64,000 bases of DNA from a bacterium (GTDB lineage Bacteria; Babelota; Babeliae; Babelales; Babelaceae): contig JAEYYR010000002.1 in assembly GCA_023428375.1 (NCBI GenBank), positions 302,077 through 366,076 of the forward strand, written 5' to 3'. Positions 5,340-12,476 of the stretch are shown piece after piece. The translations under genes were made by a program, and so were the position numbers. The notes beneath the pieces were generated by a model, which did not search any database, had not been told where the DNA came from, and was given only the letters and a program-made list of their open reading frames with translations. Positions within the stretch are counted from its first letter, which is position 1, and each line of letters opens with the position of its first letter.

Positions 5340-5986
5340 TGATAATTACTATCGATGGTCCTTCCGCAAGTGGAAAATCAACCATTGCGCAATTGGTTGC
5401 GCAAAATAATGGCATGTATTATATAAATTCAGGATTTTTGTATCGCGCATATGCCTATGTTATGAATCAAAATCCAGGAACAACATCTGAAGAATTTTTA
5501 AGATTTATATCCTACAAATATCACTCATTTCCCCAAGTATTATGGCATAATGTTGAAATTACACATTATCTTAAAACACCAGAAATTGACCGATTGGCGT
5601 CACAATTAAGTGGGTTGCATGAAGTCCGTCCACTTATAACACAACTGCAACGAAATCTTGCAGACCAATATGATGTAGTTATTGATGGCAGAGATTGTGG
5701 GACCGTTGTTTTTCCTAATGCAGAGGTAAAATTTTATCTCACTGCTTCGTTAGAAGTGCGTGCACAACGATGGCAGCATATGCAATTGCGACATGGACAT
5801 ATTATTACGTATCAAGAAGCAATCAATCTTATTTCAGAACGAGATTTAAGAGATAGTACTCGTAATATTGCACCATTGACCAAACCACAAGATGCAATTG
5901 CTATTGATTCATCAGAATTAACGATAGAAGAAGTTTGTGCTATCATGCAAAAACACATTGACCTAAAATTACAGAGGAAATCATGA
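5339..5986 (+). CDS. cmk: Cytidylate kinase
   Basis: MIITIDGPSASGKST P-loop N-terminus typical of Cmk. ATGA overlap with the recJ stop. Confidence 0.9.
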   Translation: MIITIDGPSASGKSTIAQLVAQNNGMYYINSGFLYRAYAYVMNQNPGTTSEEFLRFISYKYHSFPQVLWHNVEITHYLKTPEIDRLASQLSGLHEVRPLITQLQRNLADQYDVVIDGRDCGTVVFPNAEVKFYLTASLEVRAQRWQHMQLRHGHIITYQEAINLISERDLRDSTRNIAPLTKPQDAIAIDSSELTIEEVCAIMQKHIDLKLQRKS

Positions 5987-6756
5987 TTTTATATTTTTTG
6001 ATACTTATGCAAATGATTAGCATCATTGCAGCTGATGAGAACAATTCAGAACTTCATACTGCAGTTCTTGATAACAATTACCTTTTAGTAAAAGAGCTTT
6101 TGGAATGTAATGTTGATCCAAATACTCAAAATAATCTCAATCAAACTCCCCTGCATTATGCATGTCATACGGGAAATGTAGCAATTGCTTCATTGTTAGT
6201 GACTTATGGCGCAGATATTGAAGCAAAAGATATTGAGGAAAGCACTCCATTGCATTATGCGTCCCGTAAAGATTTTATAGCAGTAGCACAATTATTATGT
6301 GAAAAAGGTGCTGATATTGCTGCCGTCAATTGTTACAATGTGACACCGGTATATATAGGCTGCCATTCTGGATCTCTAACAGTAGTGAAATATTTTATAG
6401 CTCGTGGTGCAAACTTGGGTGAGATAGACAGTTACGGCGCATCTCTCATGCTTTGTGCAGCAGAACGTAGCAGCGTGGGAAATGTTTACACTGTTGAACT
6501 GCTGCATACCAATGGCGTTTCATTGACGCAGGGCGATTGTGATGGCAATACTCCCCTTCATGCGGTGGTACAAACGAAGGCATTTGGTGCTCTTCTGGCC
6601 CTCGTTGCGTTAAGAGCAAACCCTGCTATTTGTAATAATAAAGGCCAAACCCCGGCTGATGTAGCATTGGAACTTGGGTATGGTGAAATCGCCGCGGCTT
6701 TAAAGGTCTATGAAAAGAGCTATCAGCGCCAGGAAGCAACTTTAGCTGGACAATAA
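5983..6756 (+). CDS. Ankyrin-repeat protein with hydrophobic N-terminus, translationally coupled to cmk
   Basis: At least five ANK repeats (TPLHYACHTGNVAIASLLVTYGADIEAKD; TPLHYASRKDFIAVAQLL; TPLHAVVQT...). ATGA overlap with the cmk stop. Confidence 0.8.
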   Translation: MILYFLILMQMISIIAADENNSELHTAVLDNNYLLVKELLECNVDPNTQNNLNQTPLHYACHTGNVAIASLLVTYGADIEAKDIEESTPLHYASRKDFIAVAQLLCEKGADIAAVNCYNVTPVYIGCHSGSLTVVKYFIARGANLGEIDSYGASLMLCAAERSSVGNVYTVELLHTNGVSLTQGDCDGNTPLHAVVQTKAFGALLALVALRANPAICNNKGQTPADVALELGYGEIAAALKVYEKSYQRQEATLAGQ

Positions 6757-6783: not shown

Positions 6784-7146
6784 ATGTCTGATTCTTCAAG
6801 GAATTTTCCTGCTATGAACAAAACACAGCCAATATTTGATCGTTATTCAATATTTATTTCTGGCGGTAAACAATATCAAGCTATTGAAGGCCAAACTGTT
6901 GCTTTAGAAAAGATTGCAGCTGAAGAAGGCAAGGAAGTAGTTTTTGAACAAGTTTTATTGCGCAAAACTGACGCTAATTCAATTGAAATTGGTCAGCCAT
7001 TTGTAAACACCCCAATAAAAGCTACGATTGTAAAACATACTAAAGGCCCAAAACTTATTGCATTTAAGTTCAAACGCCGTAAAAAGTATCGTCGCAAAAT
7101 GGGTCATCGTCAACTTATTACCGTTGTACGTATTGAATCTATCTAA
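6784..7146 (+). CDS. rplU: 50S ribosomal protein L21
   Basis: YSIFISGGKQYQAIEGQTVALEKI matches the L21 N-terminal signature. TAAGGT RBS. N-terminal extension, so the true start could be the ATG at 6817. Confidence 0.85.
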   Translation: MSDSSRNFPAMNKTQPIFDRYSIFISGGKQYQAIEGQTVALEKIAAEEGKEVVFEQVLLRKTDANSIEIGQPFVNTPIKATIVKHTKGPKLIAFKFKRRKKYRRKMGHRQLITVVRIESI

Positions 7147-7159
7147 ATAGATACCAAAA

Positions 7160-7195
7160 AATTAAAGCCCCGAATAAATCGGGGCTTTTTTTATA
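7160..7195. terminator. Bidirectional rho-independent terminator
   Basis: AGCCCCG-aataaat-CGGGGCT hairpin flanked by an A-run upstream and a T-run downstream. Sits between convergent rplU and the 7191-8354 gene. Confidence 0.7.
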
Positions 7196-8354
7196 TACTT
7201 ATGATTTCTTTTTTCAATTCAACACCGGTAGATGTTTTTTTCAAGCCATAGATGTTAAAGCTATTTTGATCTTCTTCTGCAAGAGTATAGTAAGCAATCT
7301 CGCTATCTATTATTTTTTTAGTATTTTGTGCCAAATCAAACAAGTATGTTTTTCTTTCTACAGTGCGATAAAGGATAACGTCATCGCTTAATAATAGACT
7401 GCTTAAAACTTGATCGGGCAGATTGAGTTTTGTTATTTTTTCTTTGCCATAATCTATTAAAAACACGTTGCCATTTTGTACAGCAGTCATTTTAGAGTCC
7501 ATTGGAGAAAAAGCAACATGAAACCAAGGGTCATTGCTTTCTTTTGGTAACGGAAGAATGATACGGGTAGTTCTCGGGCCGTGATTATGGAGAATGAGTA
7601 TTTTATCTTTATTTAGTAATGCGCTATCTGCTAACGGACTGTACGCGCTTAAATATACACTTGATATATCAAAGTGCTGAGGAATCAAAAGTTTTAATAA
7701 GTCACTGTTAGTTATACGGAATGTGCCATCGGGAAGTACGTATATAATTTTGTTTTGGTTATCTTGAGTAATAATTATATTTTTAAATTCAAGTGTTTCG
7801 GGAATAAATAGCGACGACAGAATAGAATATTTTACCAATTCTGGATATTTTTCAGAAATTGTATGTAGCATTCTTTCATTTAGATTATATTCTTCTGCAA
7901 AAATAATTTTTCTTAAAGCCAGATCAAAATTGTCATAGGGTAAATGGAAAATATTTCTTAAAGCTTTTTTTACCGCTAATTTTTTAGCTTGAACTGAACT
8001 CATTGTGGATGGCAACTGCTTTAACTGATCGTATATTTGTTTTAATAATTGATTTTGTATGTTATTAAATATAAGCGCGTTTGCTACTACAAAATAGTCA
8101 GTTAGTTTTTCAAGTGGTATATCCTCAAACTTGCTTTTTGATTGTTCAAAAAATTCTTTGAATCGATAATTTGAAATTCCTGATGGGAGCAAAAAGGGTT
8201 GTTTATATGATGGATTTTCCATCATACCGTTAAAATAATCACTTTGTTCAATAAATTCCATAGGAAATGATTCAATTGTATCTTGGTCATCCCTAATTTG
8301 TATGGCTTGAGCGATTGTGCACACAATACTTAAAAAAAATACTAAATGCTTCAT
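7191..8354 (-). CDS. Secreted paralog (family member 3): BTB-like N-terminal region plus repeat-rich beta-propeller-like C-terminus
   Basis: Signal peptide MKHLVFFLSIVCTIAQA. The N-terminal FPMEFIEQSDYFNGMM..LLP..IS and C-terminal HVAFSP..FLIDYGKEKITKLNLP..LLSDDVILYRT blocks align with the two upstream paralogs. ATGA overlap with the upstream gene. Confidence 0.7.
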   Translation of the reverse strand: MKHLVFFLSIVCTIAQAIQIRDDQDTIESFPMEFIEQSDYFNGMMENPSYKQPFLLPSGISNYRFKEFFEQSKSKFEDIPLEKLTDYFVVANALIFNNIQNQLLKQIYDQLKQLPSTMSSVQAKKLAVKKALRNIFHLPYDNFDLALRKIIFAEEYNLNERMLHTISEKYPELVKYSILSSLFIPETLEFKNIIITQDNQNKIIYVLPDGTFRITNSDLLKLLIPQHFDISSVYLSAYSPLADSALLNKDKILILHNHGPRTTRIILPLPKESNDPWFHVAFSPMDSKMTAVQNGNVFLIDYGKEKITKLNLPDQVLSSLLLSDDVILYRTVERKTYLFDLAQNTKKIIDSEIAYYTLAEEDQNSFNIYGLKKTSTGVELKKEIISI

Positions 8355-9658
8355 AATATACCTTTATTTTTTATATTAATTTTTTCTATAGTAGGGCGTA
8401 TTTGATTGGTAGCGGAATTTTCATAAAATCCATGAATTTCTACATCACCATTGGTTTTTAAAAATGCGTATGAAAAATAATCTATATTCACGTTTGGGAT
8501 ATGGGATATTTTATGTGTTTTTATGTTATAAGCGTAGGTATTACCATGTAAGGTTCTTATTAATAAAGTGTCATCGATGAGTACGCTACTAAATATTTTT
8601 GCTGGTAAATCTATTGGTTTGATTTCTCCATCTTCAATCGAGACTATAAAGCACTTACCGTTTTTAATGTAGGTGAGATAATTGTTGTCGGTTGAAAATG
8701 CTACATGCGTGCATGGATAATCTGAATTATCAAGGGACAATAATTTTCCTGTCGGCATACTAGACCCCGAATATGAAGACATTATCGCTTGCCTCATTCT
8801 CGCCAATAAATTGTTGGTAACGTTTGAAGGAATGGGACAAATAATAATAAATGATGCATTAGCAAATGCGGCTATTTTGCCATAATTATTGAATGCGATG
8901 GTATTTATTGTTTTCCAGTTAAATTTTTTAAGGGGAATTTTAAAATACGTAACAAATTGTTGAGTATTTAATTGCAAGAGATTCTCGGGATCATCAATAT
9001 TCCAAAATGAAATACGCAACATATTTCGTATAGTATCACTGAAGACCGCAATATATTGAGTAGTTTCAAAACTCTCGTTGTGATTTTTATTATAAATCAT
9101 AGCTGCAATATATGAGATATTAGAAGGCACCAGATCATCTTGGATTGATTCTGATTTAAAGTATTCATTAAACGTTGTTATATTCAATGTTTTATTTTTT
9201 TTGTCGGTCGCAAGAAGAGTAACTTTTGTATCAACATCATTTTTCTGTATGCCAAAGAGGTGAGACAACACCGCATATGCTTCTTGCTTGTCAGATGGAC
9301 TCGGGTTATTACTTGCTAATCGTTTAAATAGTAATTTAATCAATTGTTCTTGTAATGAATGATTCAGTATTTTATTTGCATTCGTTACATACTCAAATAA
9401 TTGTTTTAAAGAGCTTGTAGAAAAATCCGTTAATGAATCCATATACAAATTATGCATTTCGCTTAACGAAATATTAGTAGGTATTAATAGGGGTGGTTGA
9501 AAATTAGTTTCGATCACCCCTTTAAAATATTCACTCTTTTCTAAAAATTCTTGAGGATAAAAGTCTTTATTTCCTTTTTCATCCATTATTTCAATATCAT
9601 TGGTATTTCCCCAAAAGCACTGCATTGCAAGATATATCAAAGCCAATCTTTTTTTCAT
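8351..9658 (-). CDS. Secreted paralog (family member 2)
   Basis: Signal-like N-terminus. FYPQEFLEKSEYFKGVIE..PLLIPTNISLSEM...LKQLFEYV (BTB-like pattern) and C-terminal THVAFS..CFIVSIEDGEIKPIDLP..LLIRTLHGNTYAYNIKT. Confidence 0.7.
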   Translation of the reverse strand: MKKRLALIYLAMQCFWGNTNDIEIMDEKGNKDFYPQEFLEKSEYFKGVIETNFQPPLLIPTNISLSEMHNLYMDSLTDFSTSSLKQLFEYVTNANKILNHSLQEQLIKLLFKRLASNNPSPSDKQEAYAVLSHLFGIQKNDVDTKVTLLATDKKNKTLNITTFNEYFKSESIQDDLVPSNISYIAAMIYNKNHNESFETTQYIAVFSDTIRNMLRISFWNIDDPENLLQLNTQQFVTYFKIPLKKFNWKTINTIAFNNYGKIAAFANASFIIICPIPSNVTNNLLARMRQAIMSSYSGSSMPTGKLLSLDNSDYPCTHVAFSTDNNYLTYIKNGKCFIVSIEDGEIKPIDLPAKIFSSVLIDDTLLIRTLHGNTYAYNIKTHKISHIPNVNIDYFSYAFLKTNGDVEIHGFYENSATNQIRPTIEKINIKNKGIL

Positions 9659-9663
9659 GGATG

Positions 9664-11043
9664 TTAATCCTGATTAATCGTAGTTAAATCGATAGATTGT
9701 GAAACGACTTCAAATTGTGACTGGTTTTTATCATCCGTACTTTGTTGAATACCGACCACAAGAACTGTATCATCTTTAGCGTAACAATTCAGGTACCAAT
9801 CAATTGTGCTATCAGTGAGTGGATTTAATTGTTTTGTAGCAAGATCATAGGTGAATGTATTGCCATTCAATGTTCTAATAAGCAAGATTCTATTTGACAC
9901 GAGTATGCTACTGAATGCATGAGGAATATGTGTTGGAGTGATCGTTTTAGTTGCTAGGTCAATTATATATGGTTCATTATTAACGATGCAGCTCACTTTA
10001 GTTCGATCACACGAGAACGCTATATGTGAACACAATGCATTTGATTGTATTGATTTTAGATTTATCACATACGATTGTGGTTCAGCATGTACAGGACGTG
10101 CTGTTATTGCTAGGGAGCCTGGTGCTGCAAAGGCAAGAATTGAGTTGTTATTTGAAGCAGCAAGCATATAAACTTTATCCCAATCAAAGGATTTAGATTT
10201 GAATAAGCCTTTTTTATTAACCTTCCAATAATTTTCATCAAGATAGGTAAAATTTTTGCTACGTTGACGTTGGGTTAGCTTGTTTGACCATACCAATCGA
10301 ATATCGGGATCTCTAATAAGAGTATACTCAACTAATGGAGTATTTTCAGGTAAATCAACTGTTGATGCATCAGGCAATGAATAAATAATTTCGGTTGAAG
10401 GGTCCTGGCGCATTAAATGCTGAATCCAATTATTTTTTCTTTTAACTTGATCGATAAATTGTTGTTGGAATGAAACAGGATTTAATTGTTTTTTTGGTTG
10501 ATTGGATTGAAGCATTTTTTCTTGAGCTCGCTGAATTGCTAAATTAAGAGAAAAATTTTTCTTAGATAATCCAAGATAATGCGATAAATGTTTTTCAGCA
10601 TACTCAATATCGTTTTTCCACTCTTTAGTAATTTTAGATGGTGGGTTGTTTAGTTTTTTTTGTATCAAACTTTCTAATGTTTGCTGTGCTTCTGCGTTTC
10701 CAAGCTTATCAGCATAAATGATATAATCGGTTAATGCGTGTAATGAATCAGTATTTTGAAAGCCATCGAGTGCATTTGTATAAAACTGTGTAAATTGTTG
10801 CATAGAAATACGTTCAGGAAGCTGATAGATGTTTTGGCCAGGAAAGTCTTCGATCAAATCATGCAATACGCTGTTTTGATGAATGAATTTTGCGTTAAAA
10901 TCAGCTTGATTGTCTTTTTCGTCTTTAAATGTGATTGAAGGTGGTGTCCCAGCGTTTGAGGTATTATTATTCAAATCACTGGATGAAATAAACCAGTTTG
11001 TAAACAATAGTAAAGCAATTAACGTTTTTTGAATGGCTTTCAT
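9664..11043 (-). CDS. Secreted paralog (family member 1)
   Basis: Signal peptide MKAIQKTLIALLLFTNWFISS. FIHQNSVLHDLIEDF...LPERISMQQFTQFY and SHIAFSCD..YIIDLATKTITPTHIP..LLIRTLNGNTFTYDLATK. Confidence 0.7.
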   Translation of the reverse strand: MKAIQKTLIALLLFTNWFISSSDLNNNTSNAGTPPSITFKDEKDNQADFNAKFIHQNSVLHDLIEDFPGQNIYQLPERISMQQFTQFYTNALDGFQNTDSLHALTDYIIYADKLGNAEAQQTLESLIQKKLNNPPSKITKEWKNDIEYAEKHLSHYLGLSKKNFSLNLAIQRAQEKMLQSNQPKKQLNPVSFQQQFIDQVKRKNNWIQHLMRQDPSTEIIYSLPDASTVDLPENTPLVEYTLIRDPDIRLVWSNKLTQRQRSKNFTYLDENYWKVNKKGLFKSKSFDWDKVYMLAASNNNSILAFAAPGSLAITARPVHAEPQSYVINLKSIQSNALCSHIAFSCDRTKVSCIVNNEPYIIDLATKTITPTHIPHAFSSILVSNRILLIRTLNGNTFTYDLATKQLNPLTDSTIDWYLNCYAKDDTVLVVGIQQSTDDKNQSQFEVVSQSIDLTTINQD

Positions 11044-11210
11044 TACTACACCTATAATTCTTATTTTTCCTATTAATATTATAGGTAATCAATTATCCAT
11101 TATTCAATGAATTAAAAATGGTTTATTTATAAATCGAATGTTTACAAATAATTCATTTTTTCATAATTATTTGCTCAATGGTAGAGATCTCTTTATAATG
11201 AAGCAATATT

Positions 11211-12476
11211 TTGAAAGATATTATGCTAGATATATTATTACTTTTGCTTGCTTTGTGTGTAACTGCTGAAAATTCTGCACTTGATTTTAAGTTGAATGAT
11301 CAAGATGTTTATGAGTGTTTTTTTATAGATGAAATCGAGCCACAAAAATTACTTACCTATGAACCACTGAAACCATGTTACAGTCAAATCTACAAAGCCA
11401 CTGATTGTACGGGTGAAGTTCTAAATCGTTTAAATTTACCATTAAAGCAGTACCATTATGATCCATCTATTGAGCGAATTGATGGTTTTATCTTTGATTA
11501 TGTAACAAGCTTTAGATCTAGTGGTAGCAGAACTCCCGATGTAATATATCTTGATTACATAGATACCGCCCATTCACGCTTAACCCGTTTCTATAGTCTT
11601 CTTGGACATGAAATACACGAGCACTGTAAGACGGTTGGGTTCTATACATATAATTTAGCTCCCTTTAATAGTAAATTAGAATCAATGATTGATGCTGCAA
11701 AATGGGAATGTGGATCATACTCATGCTTAAAGATAATGATGGATGCATTTCTCGATGATCCAAAAAATATTATTTTTGCTGGAATGTTAAAAAATGCGTC
11801 GTTATATGCACAAATCCCATTTATTGAGGGTGCGCATATTCCACAAAAGCCCAAAAAAGATCAAAAACACGATATTGAATCTAATGTATATGCTAAGATT
11901 GCGCTCGTTCAACTAGGCAAAGCTTTCTATACTCTAGATCTTGTGAAAGTTCATCAGAAACTTACCTTTGCAAAGAAAACGCAGCGAATGCTTTTACCAA
12001 GGGATGATAGTTGGTTAGCTTTATCTCCCGATGCGTCTGAATTAATTACGTATGATCGTCAGAATTGCTCGTTAATTAGAATGAAGCAGTGGCGCGATAA
12101 TAAGAATAAAACCGATGAAGTTTTGTTTGTTGTTCCTATCGAAGCACACATACAACATGGTATATATATTAATAACGAGTTATTGTTGCTGGCTTTTTTA
12201 ACAAAAAATAGTATATGCAATATTGTTTATGATATTAATCAAAATAAGTTTTATTTACTTCCTGATACAATCCGCTTTCAACGTTTTCTTATAGCAGGTG
12301 AAGCAAAATTCAACGATCGCTATGTTGTTGGCGGCTTTACGTCAGAAGATGTGCGTTATTCGCGATGGCTTTCTCACAAAAAACTTAGTATAAACGATTC
12401 TTTTTCATGCGCTGCAGATGCATTCAGTTTGCGTCATTTTTCAATGAATGATGCCGTTTCAATAGATTTTAAATAG
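11211..12476 (+). CDS. Hypothetical secreted protein, possibly a divergent relative of the 7191-11043 family
   Basis: Hydrophobic N-terminus LDILLLLLALCVTA. The C-terminal third (LALSPDASELITYDRQN..VLFVVPIEA..LLLLAFLTKNSICNIVYDINQNK) has the same pattern of alternating hydrophobic strands as the propeller-like regions. Confidence 0.45.
   Translation: MKDIMLDILLLLLALCVTAENSALDFKLNDQDVYECFFIDEIEPQKLLTYEPLKPCYSQIYKATDCTGEVLNRLNLPLKQYHYDPSIERIDGFIFDYVTSFRSSGSRTPDVIYLDYIDTAHSRLTRFYSLLGHEIHEHCKTVGFYTYNLAPFNSKLESMIDAAKWECGSYSCLKIMMDAFLDDPKNIIFAGMLKNASLYAQIPFIEGAHIPQKPKKDQKHDIESNVYAKIALVQLGKAFYTLDLVKVHQKLTFAKKTQRMLLPRDDSWLALSPDASELITYDRQNCSLIRMKQWRDNKNKTDEVLFVVPIEAHIQHGIYINNELLLLAFLTKNSICNIVYDINQNKFYLLPDTIRFQRFLIAGEAKFNDRYVVGGFTSEDVRYSRWLSHKKLSINDSFSCAADAFSLRHFSMNDAVSIDFK

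Follow-up and report, generated by a model that had tools for sequence, protein, structure and literature searches.

BTB-BACK-Kelch proteins of the KLHL and KBTBD types (for example KBTBD2, KBTBD4, KEAP1 and KLHL3) are substrate adaptors of eukaryotic Cul3-RING ubiquitin ligases. The BTB fold is also used simply for oligomerization, by Kv channels in their T1 domains and by KCTDs, and the fold alone therefore does not imply cullin binding. Skp1 is a stand-alone protein of ~160 residues that needs an F-box partner, and the C-terminal helices following its core (H5–H8) form the F-box-binding groove. TolB, a periplasmic component of the Tol-Pal system, is composed of a signal peptide, an N-terminal α/β domain and a C-terminal β-propeller, with a total size of ~430 residues. 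In SHKBP1 and KCTD3, a BTB domain that binds CUL3 is followed by a WD domain that binds the substrate (bioRxiv 10.1101/2025.01.21.634088). The amoeba-associated Protochlamydia encodes BTB-LRR type III effector families termed PEX1, and such families, joining an adaptor domain to repeats, are expanded, tandemly duplicated and subject to fast birth and death; in 2014, the Chlamydiae were reported to be the sole bacterial lineage with BTB domains (PMC4209131). [quoted passage not shown]

Here we describe three tandem genes, A, B and C, within a 64,000-nucleotide stretch of DNA (the window), for the products of which BTB/POZ and WD40-like folds are predicted, with the fold as a whole well supported. 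The window comes from a bacterium of the Babeliales (Dependentiae), an obligate intracellular parasite of protists. The features of the locus are given below; domain limits for genes A and C were transferred from the model of the gene B protein through the family alignment.

9664–11043, minus strand: gene C, open reading frame of 459 residues; signal-peptide-like N terminus (residues 1 to ~22), then a low-complexity N-rich spacer
10642–10944, minus strand: gene C, predicted BTB/POZ-like core (residues ~34–134)
10417–10641, minus strand: gene C, predicted helical linker (residues 135–209)
9682–10416, minus strand: gene C, predicted WD40-like β region (residues 210–454)
8351–9658, minus strand: gene B, 435 residues, the protein used for modelling; signal-peptide-like segment at residues 1–17
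9308–9604, minus strand: gene B, predicted BTB/POZ core (residues 19–117)
9119–9307, minus strand: gene B, predicted helical extension (residues 118–180)
8369–9118, minus strand: gene B, predicted WD40-like β region (residues 181–430)
7191–8354, minus strand: gene A, open reading frame of 387 residues; putative signal peptide at residues 1–17, ending in AQA
8013–8312, minus strand: gene A, predicted BTB/POZ core (residues ~15–114)
7830–8012, minus strand: gene A, predicted helical linker (residues 115–175)
7194–7829, minus strand: gene A, predicted WD40-like β region (residues 176–387)
11223–12476, plus strand: gene D, 417 residues from the ATG at 11223, or 421 from the TTG at 11211
11078–11107, minus strand: promoter-like site, TTGAAT-18 nt-TATAAT, 35 nt upstream of gene C
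7164–7188, no strand assigned: GC-rich hairpin of 10 bp, flanked on either side by T-runs

The first-pass annotation had called four open reading frames here, and an ORF check recovered all four at exactly those positions. For gene D, the ATG, which gives the 417-residue public gene call, is a more likely start than the TTG. ATGA overlaps had been proposed throughout the array: at the B/A junction the ATG of gene A does overlap the TGA of gene B, but a 5-nt spacer (TAA-CATCC-ATG) lies between genes C and B. The promoter-like site lies in a 179-nt AT-rich divergent intergenic region common to genes C and D. It was recognized solely by its match to the consensus, and the region has no more sites of this type than shuffled sequence would lead one to expect; it is a weak candidate for the promoter of a C–B–A operon. 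The hairpin separates the 3′ end of gene A from rplU (6784–7146), which runs convergently, and looks like a bidirectional intrinsic terminator.

Genes A, B and C encode full-length paralogs, as had been suggested; by BLASTP, identity is 23–25%, close to the 25–30% estimated by eye (B versus C, E = 3e-23, 25%; A versus B, E = 2e-20, 23%; A versus C, E = 4e-18, 24%). The proposed two-part architecture is also borne out: in the family alignment, the N-terminal block and the last ~130 residues are conserved (mean pairwise identity 33.8% and 36.6%, respectively), and between them come a helical linker and a middle part with many gaps (~23%). The motifs [ST]H[IV]AFS and LLIRTL.GNT[FY].Y[DN][IL], picked out in the three paralogs, are kept across the whole family. 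Gene D, the divergently transcribed neighbour of gene C, also has a signal-peptide-like N terminus and had been put forward as a possible fourth member. Its membership is marginal: BLASTP similarity is not significant, and a profile–profile comparison of 13 sequences from the family with 3 of the D type gave a score of 31.2 (P = 0.0035, probability 9%; maximum in 30 column shuffles 21.7), in register over the last ~100 residues only. No similarity to the BTB block is seen at the N terminus of gene D, and the last ~100 residues may form a β module common to gene D and the family. Homologs of gene D are L39_410, which one relative carries at the corresponding position (36% identity), and P0022 (47%).

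The N-terminal domain, modelled with a pLDDT of 80.7 and a pTM of 0.70 (five models spanning 75–81), displays the order β-β-α-α-β-α-α-α, that of the canonical BTB/POZ core B1-B2-A1-A2-B3-A3-A4-A5, in which a three-stranded sheet is flanked by five helices. The core reaches a pLDDT of ~90 in two independent runs, one on the domain alone and one on the full-length protein. In Foldseek searches with the N-terminal domain, Skp1 chains make up the majority of the top 50 matches and rank above Cul3-type BTBs; the best PDB matches of the full-length model are the BTB-BACK-Kelch proteins KBTBD4 and KBTBD2, followed by WD40 propellers. The BTB/POZ-like N terminus of the first-pass annotation is found in the predicted fold but not in the sequence: the full-length proteins match neither Pfam BTB (PF00651) nor Skp1_POZ (PF03931) at E ≤ 10, only 1 of 14 N-terminal domains matched PF00651 (E = 0.14) and none matched Skp1_POZ, and the family profile found nothing relevant among PDB sequences. 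An hhalign comparison of the family domain with an approximate human SKP1 sequence was weak and in register (P = 0.013). As BTB is not matched at the sequence level, common descent with the BTB proteins of eukaryotes is unproven, and the fold may have arisen by convergence.

The N-terminal extension (β1/α1) of the domain-swapped BTB homodimer is absent from family members, in all of which strand B1 starts 2–5 residues past the predicted signal-peptide cleavage site. On the model, the domain appears to be a short-form BTB of the Skp1/Elongin C kind, with a core that opens directly with strand 1. A likeness to Skp1 can also be seen by eye in the patterns I.[IL].D..G..F.....[IV].Q[SN]......[IM]E[DN], LP..I and L..L...A.KL. 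Helices follow the core at residues 103–117, 121–132 and 142–154 of the model, and three to four helices may extend it in the manner of the start of the 3-box/BACK region of Cul3 adaptors or of Skp1 H6–H8. The N-terminal 160 residues resemble Skp1 in length and helix count, with an r.m.s.d. that climbs to 8–10 Å when the C-terminal helices are included (155–180 aligned columns). A conserved F-x-[DN] in the loop after A3 was likened, by eye only, to the Cul3-binding φ-x-E motif of the A3–A4 loop.

The C-terminal region had been described as propeller-like and compared with Kelch; it appears closer to WD40 than to Kelch. In Foldseek, the C-terminal ~250 residues match WDR5 and other WD40 propellers (E ~1e-7 over ~195 columns). 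Using hhalign, the C-terminal profile aligns with genuine WD40 propellers at a probability of 78–82% (E ~1e-5) in several blade registers, over 150–200 columns spanning ~220 residues. Remote HMMER matches of the family are limited to WD40, BNR or Kelch repeat proteins; one of them, P0019, is weak and looks like a propeller fragment, with sub-threshold Pfam matches to THOC3 β-propeller and NHL. Pfam WD40 is unmatched by the full-length proteins, and internal-repeat detection is weak (P = 0.06). About four blades are modelled at a pLDDT of 80–90 (gene B residues 253–428), against the 6–8 four-stranded blades with which such rings usually close, and the domain is probably WD40-like and of the β-propeller type.

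Both models were built from shallow alignments, of 12 sequences for the N-terminal domain and 3 for the full-length protein, and the latter model has a mean pLDDT of 66, with long low-confidence stretches (residues 170–244 and 277–302 below 50). Together with a BTB domain that sequence-profile methods do not recognize, this could mean that both fold assignments are modelling artefacts and that the real fold is another. We regard this as highly improbable, given the agreement of the five models and of the two independent runs on a core with the canonical order of elements, and a WD40 relation seen independently at the sequence-profile level.

The combination differs from each of the systems described above. 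Compared with the BTB-BACK-Kelch proteins, to which sequence homology is not detectable, the family has a short-form BTB lacking the N-terminal dimerization strand and helix, a helical region of ~60 residues rather than a BACK domain of ~130, a shorter predicted propeller (~210–250 residues) that is WD40-like and not Kelch, and a putative bacterial signal peptide. Skp1 stands alone, whereas the family domain is joined to a propeller of its own, and Pfam Skp1_POZ and Skp1 are unmatched. [quoted passage not shown] With PEX1, and with bacterial F-box and U-box effectors such as Legionella AnkB, the family shares expansion by tandem duplication with rapid birth and death, and the joining of an adaptor-type domain to a repeat domain, in protist-associated intracellular bacteria. 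PEX1, however, belongs to a phylum other than Dependentiae and has a Pfam-recognizable BTB, LRRs and type III export, whereas the family has a BTB seen in predicted structure only, a WD40-like propeller and a putative Sec signal peptide. Viral BTB proteins, for their part, lack a signal peptide, being made directly in the host cytoplasm, and their BTB is recognizable from sequence.

Every family member has a signal-peptide-like N terminus and no other hydrophobic or TM-like segment, as had been expected of secreted proteins; this was assessed with a hydrophobicity heuristic, not SignalP. In all 15 family and D-type proteins, a 10-residue Kyte–Doolittle window reaches 1.9–3.6 within the first 25 residues, except in L39_431, probably a truncated gene call. 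These segments are mostly preceded by K or R, and motifs of the type AQA| and AQD| can be seen. A Sec signal peptide, made up of a basic n-region, a hydrophobic h-region and small residues at −3/−1, alone delivers a protein to the periplasm only, and we assume passage from there to the host cytosol. Sec and type II secretion have been reported for the phylum, and in C. destructans 44% of coding sequences have signal peptides, presumed effectors included (PMC4776705, PMC6561590).

As the Sec-type signal peptide is the sole targeting signal seen, the proteins could instead belong to the bacterium's own envelope or periplasm, with a propeller that binds a ligand, a BTB-like domain that oligomerizes or anchors, and no link to host ubiquitination. 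The ligand might be, for instance, a component of the cell wall or outer membrane, a molecule on the host surface, or a nutrient. In size and domain order the proteins are similar to periplasmic propeller proteins such as TolB, the propeller-like look of P0019 is in line with such a role, BTB folds are often plain oligomerization modules, and host-facing surface proteins likewise diverge quickly and differ in copy number. We nevertheless find this reading rather unlikely: the 50–60 fold matches listed for the N-terminal domain and the full-length protein consist of WD40 proteins and of proteins with the BTB/POZ fold, the latter including many cullin-RING adaptors, and contain neither TolB nor any other periplasmic protein. 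Identity with TolB was itself rejected, as TolB_N and PD40 are unmatched in Pfam and the N-terminal domain has a BTB fold.

Rarity, too, would be unexpected of envelope housekeeping. The family comprises 11 clusters (E < 1e-10) among 1.84 billion representatives and was not found in 37 other Babeliales genomes at the corresponding locus, anchored on recJ. Widespread periplasmic homologs, which the first-pass annotation had named as evidence against its proposal, were not found, nor did the other such evidence, a prediction of non-BTB and non-propeller folds, turn up; homologs occur in only a few Babeliales genomes, all close relatives. One locus, from trkA to rplU, carries 3, 4 and 5 copies in three related genomes, and of five orthogroups in the family three are present here. 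Orthologs share 31–45% identity (71% in one pair); those of gene C are L39_440 and L40_421a (41–43%) and P0003 (54%), and those of gene A are L39_397 (43%) and L40_413 (40%). For the flanking RecJ, L21, TrkA and TrkH, identity is 82–95%, for Cmk 64–75% and for the ankyrin protein 47–79%. Genes A, B and C form an operon-like array of an orphan, lineage-restricted, fast-evolving family of variable copy number, a pattern of divergence and copy number that looks effector-like.

We hypothesize, as a proposition about evenly balanced between right and wrong, that the family proteins are exported mimics of cullin-RING substrate adaptors. After Sec-dependent export, they would be released, probably by the type II secretion system or the outer-membrane vesicles described for the phylum, and reach the host cytoplasm. 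There, the BTB/POZ module would dock on the N-terminal domain of a host cullin, either Cul3-type or Skp1-like on Cul1, and the propeller would recruit host target proteins, which would be ubiquitinated or sequestered; different paralogs (orthogroups) may handle different targets. Alternatively, the proteins could titrate cullin, as does vaccinia A55. Cullin or Skp1 binding, the ubiquitination outcome and secretion beyond the periplasm are steps that we infer. The proposal had been linked to an F-box-like ankyrin array in the same window, in which Pfam shows ankyrin repeats only, with no F-box detected even at E ≤ 10 on the N termini. A motif LPxEIxNII is visible by eye in the array.

The same evidence on fold, export and evolution would fit host-directed effectors acting outside the ubiquitin system, in which the BTB-like domain self-associates or binds another host partner and the propeller is a generic interaction platform. 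Examples would be a Skp1 decoy sequestering host F-box proteins, or a scaffolding role on an organelle of the host. The ranking of Skp1 above Cul3-type BTBs makes a decoy conceivable, and the dimerization extension typical of Cul3 adaptors is missing. However, the order of BTB, helical extension and propeller is a hallmark of CRL3 adaptors and is that of the top full-length structural matches, and the data indicate no specific alternative partner; we consider such effectors unlikely.

Returning to cullin-adaptor mimicry, a more specific version would be that these are one-piece SCF-type adaptors, a Skp1-like module fused to a WD40 receptor that bypasses the F-box and plugs into host Cul1 or Cul3. 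Alternatively, the family may represent an old bacterial BTB/POZ lineage with no detectable eukaryotic donor. We view these readings as a long shot. If the old bacterial lineage were true, it would bear on the origin of a hallmark eukaryotic fold, or on the ease with which that fold converges in protist parasites. On the strength of the predicted folds, the members of this unannotated, apparently exported family are good candidates for tools with which the bacterium hijacks host protein degradation.

Three genes of one family, A, B and C, lie in tandem on the minus strand of the window, next to a divergently transcribed neighbour, D. The genes and their associated signals are as follows:

7191–8354, minus strand: gene A, an ORF of 387 aa
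8351–9658, minus strand: gene B, an ORF of 435 aa
9664–11043, minus strand: gene C, an ORF of 459 aa
11211–12476, plus strand: gene D, 421 aa from a TTG start; the public gene call begins at ATG 11223, for 417 aa
35 nt upstream of C: promoter-like TTGAAT-18-TATAAT, a consensus match only
Intergenic region separating the 3′ end of A from rplU, which is convergent: GC-rich hairpin of 10 bp flanked on either side by T-runs, a consensus match only

These ORFs coincide exactly with those of the first-pass annotation. Of the ATGA overlaps described there, that at the B/A junction is present, whereas C and B are separated by a 5-nt gap. Because of this overlap, the short C/B gap, the promoter-like site and the hairpin, C-B-A looks like a single transcription unit. 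The G+C content of the array region (8001–12000) is 31–33%, below most of the window (34–41%), although other stretches are equally low.

The three proteins match each other over their full length at 23–25% identity (BLASTP E values of 2e-20 for A/B, 3e-23 for B/C and 4e-18 for A/C), and are thus paralogs, as had been proposed. Conservation is concentrated in two blocks, the N-terminal block (mean pairwise identity 33.8%) and the last ~130 residues (36.6%); the helical linker and the gap-rich middle region each average about 23%. By a hydrophobicity heuristic, all family members begin with a segment resembling a signal peptide, a hydrophobic stretch mostly preceded by K/R and often ending in AQA or AQD, and none contains a further hydrophobic segment.

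The N-terminal block had been likened to the BTB/POZ fold. Membership by sequence was not borne out: Pfam and NCBIfam gave no significant match for the four proteins or for 14 isolated N-domains, and profile searches of all PDB sequences, run with alignments of the full-length proteins and of the N-domains, produced no relevant match. The fold, however, was recovered by modelling, so at this level the BTB proposal withstands the refuting outcome named for it, a non-BTB fold. A full-length model of B, built on the three-paralog alignment, has a mean pLDDT of 66, rising to 80–89 in the N-terminal domain, which has the order β-β-α-α-β-α-α-α, and to 80–90 in residues 305–430, which are all-β. In Foldseek, the PDB entries that match it best are KBTBD4 and KBTBD2, both BTB-BACK-Kelch proteins (E 4e-8 to 3e-7, over the whole chain); many WD40 propellers come next. 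When residues 19–180 of B were modelled alone using 12 family sequences (pLDDT 80.7, pTM 0.70, core about 90), almost all Foldseek matches were Skp1 chains (E 5e-3 to 0.1, target TM 0.5–0.69). In hhalign, the N-domain profile aligned in register with human SKP1, at a non-significant P of 0.013. Likeness to Skp1 also bears on one of the two main rivals to adaptor mimicry, in which the proteins would act on the host independently of ubiquitin, for example as a Skp1 decoy.

The C-terminal half reads as a WD40-like, propeller-type domain, probably of five to six blades, as judged from profiles and the model. Remote matches of the family profile are exclusively WD40, BNR/sortilin and Kelch repeat proteins, and the blade motif AFS.D...L.....G..[FY]I[IV]D is matched by many short stretches. 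Against segments of genuine WD40 propellers, the C-terminal profile scored a probability of 78–82% (E about 1e-5, 150–200 columns). The alignments fall in several registers that differ by a whole number of blades, which a repeat domain should produce, and together cover nearly all of 180–430. Self-comparison for internal repeats was weak (hhalign P 0.06), and in the B model about four blades are confident, the 170–244 stretch being poorly resolved. The propeller-like C terminus of the first-pass annotation is thus retained as WD40-like by both profile and Foldseek, with a blade count that is confident only to about four. The second main rival, a role in the bacterial envelope or periplasm with the BTB domain acting as an oligomerization module, is addressed by the fold searches: with neither TolB nor another periplasmic protein among the 50–60 matches listed, TolB-like and other periplasmic readings were set aside as the primary explanation.

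The terminal blades also occur outside the array. P0017, a 277-aa signal-peptide protein encoded outside the window in the same 1.12-Mb genome, shares its last ~107 residues with the family (hhalign probability 96.5%, E 7e-10), whereas its N terminus is unrelated and lacks the BTB domain. The terminal blades therefore constitute a reusable module, recurring in other predicted exported proteins of this genome. Gene D, suggested as a divergent fourth member, may share this module in the same way. One relative encodes an ortholog of D at the equivalent position (36% identity, E 1e-87), and P0022 is a third homolog. BLASTP between D and the family was not significant, and the N terminus of D is unrelated to the BTB block. 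In hhalign, the similarity is confined to the C terminus and is in register, with a score of 31.2, where none of 30 column shuffles exceeded 21.7; as sequences were added stepwise, P went from 0.016 to 0.012 to 0.0035, with a probability of at most 9%, which is marginal. In L040, the corresponding locus of another related genome, the D position is taken by a 514-aa exported ORF (L40_514), which we rejected as a counterpart since it is unrelated to D and to the family.

The family is nearly orphan. Among 5.8 billion proteins, a word-indexed search retrieved nothing beyond self or near-self matches, and a scan of GTDB genomes with family patterns found no relative, the closest genomes evidently not being species representatives there. 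RecJ, encoded beside the array, is at most 59% identical to that of any GTDB species representative; most of its 37 matches are labelled as MAGs of Babeliales or Dependentiae (Vermiphilus and Chromulinivoraceae among them), the others carrying uninformative or other metagenome labels. On this basis the window is assigned to that phylum, whose members live as obligate intracellular parasites of protists. It took an exhaustive HMMER search across 1.84 billion representatives to reveal the family (11 clusters below 1e-10). No homolog emerged when the recJ-anchored loci in 37 other Babeliales were searched in six frames by HMM, and the family is therefore not a general feature of the order. The array recurs in the same interval, from trkA to rplU-ank-cmk-recJ, in two related metagenomic genomes, which have four and five copies. 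All-against-all comparison resolved five orthogroups in the collinear order X-C-B-A-Y, of which C, B and A are retained in the window:

L039 7368–12737: array of one related genome; B orthogroup missing
L040 3375–9922: array of the other related genome
Orthogroup X (L39_431 / L40_442): adjoins the D position; absent from the window
Orthogroup Y (L39_449 / L40_421b): adjoins rplU; absent from the window
P0010/P0023 and P0011/P0024: family fragments, both pairs on one 392-kb contig

The duplications thus predate the split of these genomes, in agreement with the earlier reading of old duplications kept side by side. Family orthologs are 31–45% identical (71% for one pair, L39_397 and L40_413), whereas the flanking RecJ, L21, TrkA and TrkH are 82–95% identical across the same genomes, so that family genes diverge several (four to five) times faster than these neighbours. 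Cmk (64–75%) and the neighbouring ankyrin protein (47–79%) are less conserved flanks. The latter has 257 aa, ankyrin repeats and a hydrophobic N terminus; its gene (5983–6756) precedes rplU and overlaps the end of cmk. Its position is kept in the relatives, with uneven identity (79% to L039 versus 47% to L040). The locus, with three, four and five family copies in the three genomes, is a hotspot where genes are gained and lost. P0003, 54% identical to C, and the fragments P0010 and P0011 indicate that at least two further genomes carry the family. The 392-kb contig, from another genome, encodes an N-terminal piece (213–216 aa, comprising BTB and linker) together with a C-terminal piece (160–176 aa, terminal blades; JGI name 'WD40 repeat protein'); the P0010/P0023 and P0011/P0024 pairs could be a split or frameshifted (pseudogenized) copy.

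The first-pass annotation had also counted an F-box-like ankyrin array as part of a common ubiquitin-ligase toolkit. It comprises three tandem paralogs:

59081–60364: ankyrin ORF
60364–61551: ankyrin ORF
62324–63574: ankyrin ORF

This part is not supported by Pfam, which shows ankyrin repeats only and gives no F-box match for the isolated N termini even at E ≤ 10. The shared ~170-aa N-terminal region, without a Pfam match, consists of a hydrophobic, signal-peptide-like leader followed by LPxEIxNII....SY, whose resemblance to the start of an F-box is a lead only. Otherwise, the original observation is largely confirmed, and its structural interpretation is supported by the models.

The predicted order of parts is signal peptide, BTB/POZ, helical extension and propeller. 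Apart from the signal peptide, this architecture is that of cullin-RING substrate adaptors, namely KLHL/KBTBD and, with WD40, SHKBP1/KCTD3 (bioRxiv 10.1101/2025.01.21.634088). By analogy, the most likely model is one in which the BTB/POZ module would dock on a host cullin (a Cul3-type one, or Cul1 in the manner of Skp1) and targets would be picked out by the propeller; ubiquitin-ligase-adaptor mimicry is thereby a plausible function. We read the family as probably exported and host-directed because the phylum is parasitic and relies, for its presumed effectors, on Sec signal peptides and type II secretion (PMC6561590, PMC4776705), because copy number varies at this locus and divergence is rapid, and because BTB-LRR effector families provide a precedent in amoeba-associated Protochlamydia (PMC4209131). 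The repeat module is LRR in Protochlamydia but WD40-like here.

The family is small, confined to one syntenic locus and divided into clear orthogroups, and is therefore a tractable test case. The phylum Dependentiae (TM6) consists of protist parasites that are widespread and almost uncultured and, to our knowledge, essentially nothing is known of their host-manipulation proteins beyond ankyrin-repeat counts. Our literature search found no report of such adaptor mimics in Dependentiae. On the basis of the models, the family is plausibly a structurally cryptic form of pathogen-encoded mimics of eukaryotic ubiquitin-ligase adaptors. Its eukaryote-like BTB domain was revealed by structure prediction and missed by Pfam, NCBIfam and PDB-sequence profiles, so the inventory of mimics in intracellular bacteria may be underestimated. 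Domman et al., in their Pfam survey of 2014, reported BTB domains recognizable by sequence from a single bacterial phylum, Chlamydiae (PMC4209131). If our interpretation is true, ubiquitin-ligase adaptor mimicry would extend to a second, unrelated phylum, with a different delivery signal (Sec, with type II secretion or vesicles as a possible next step).
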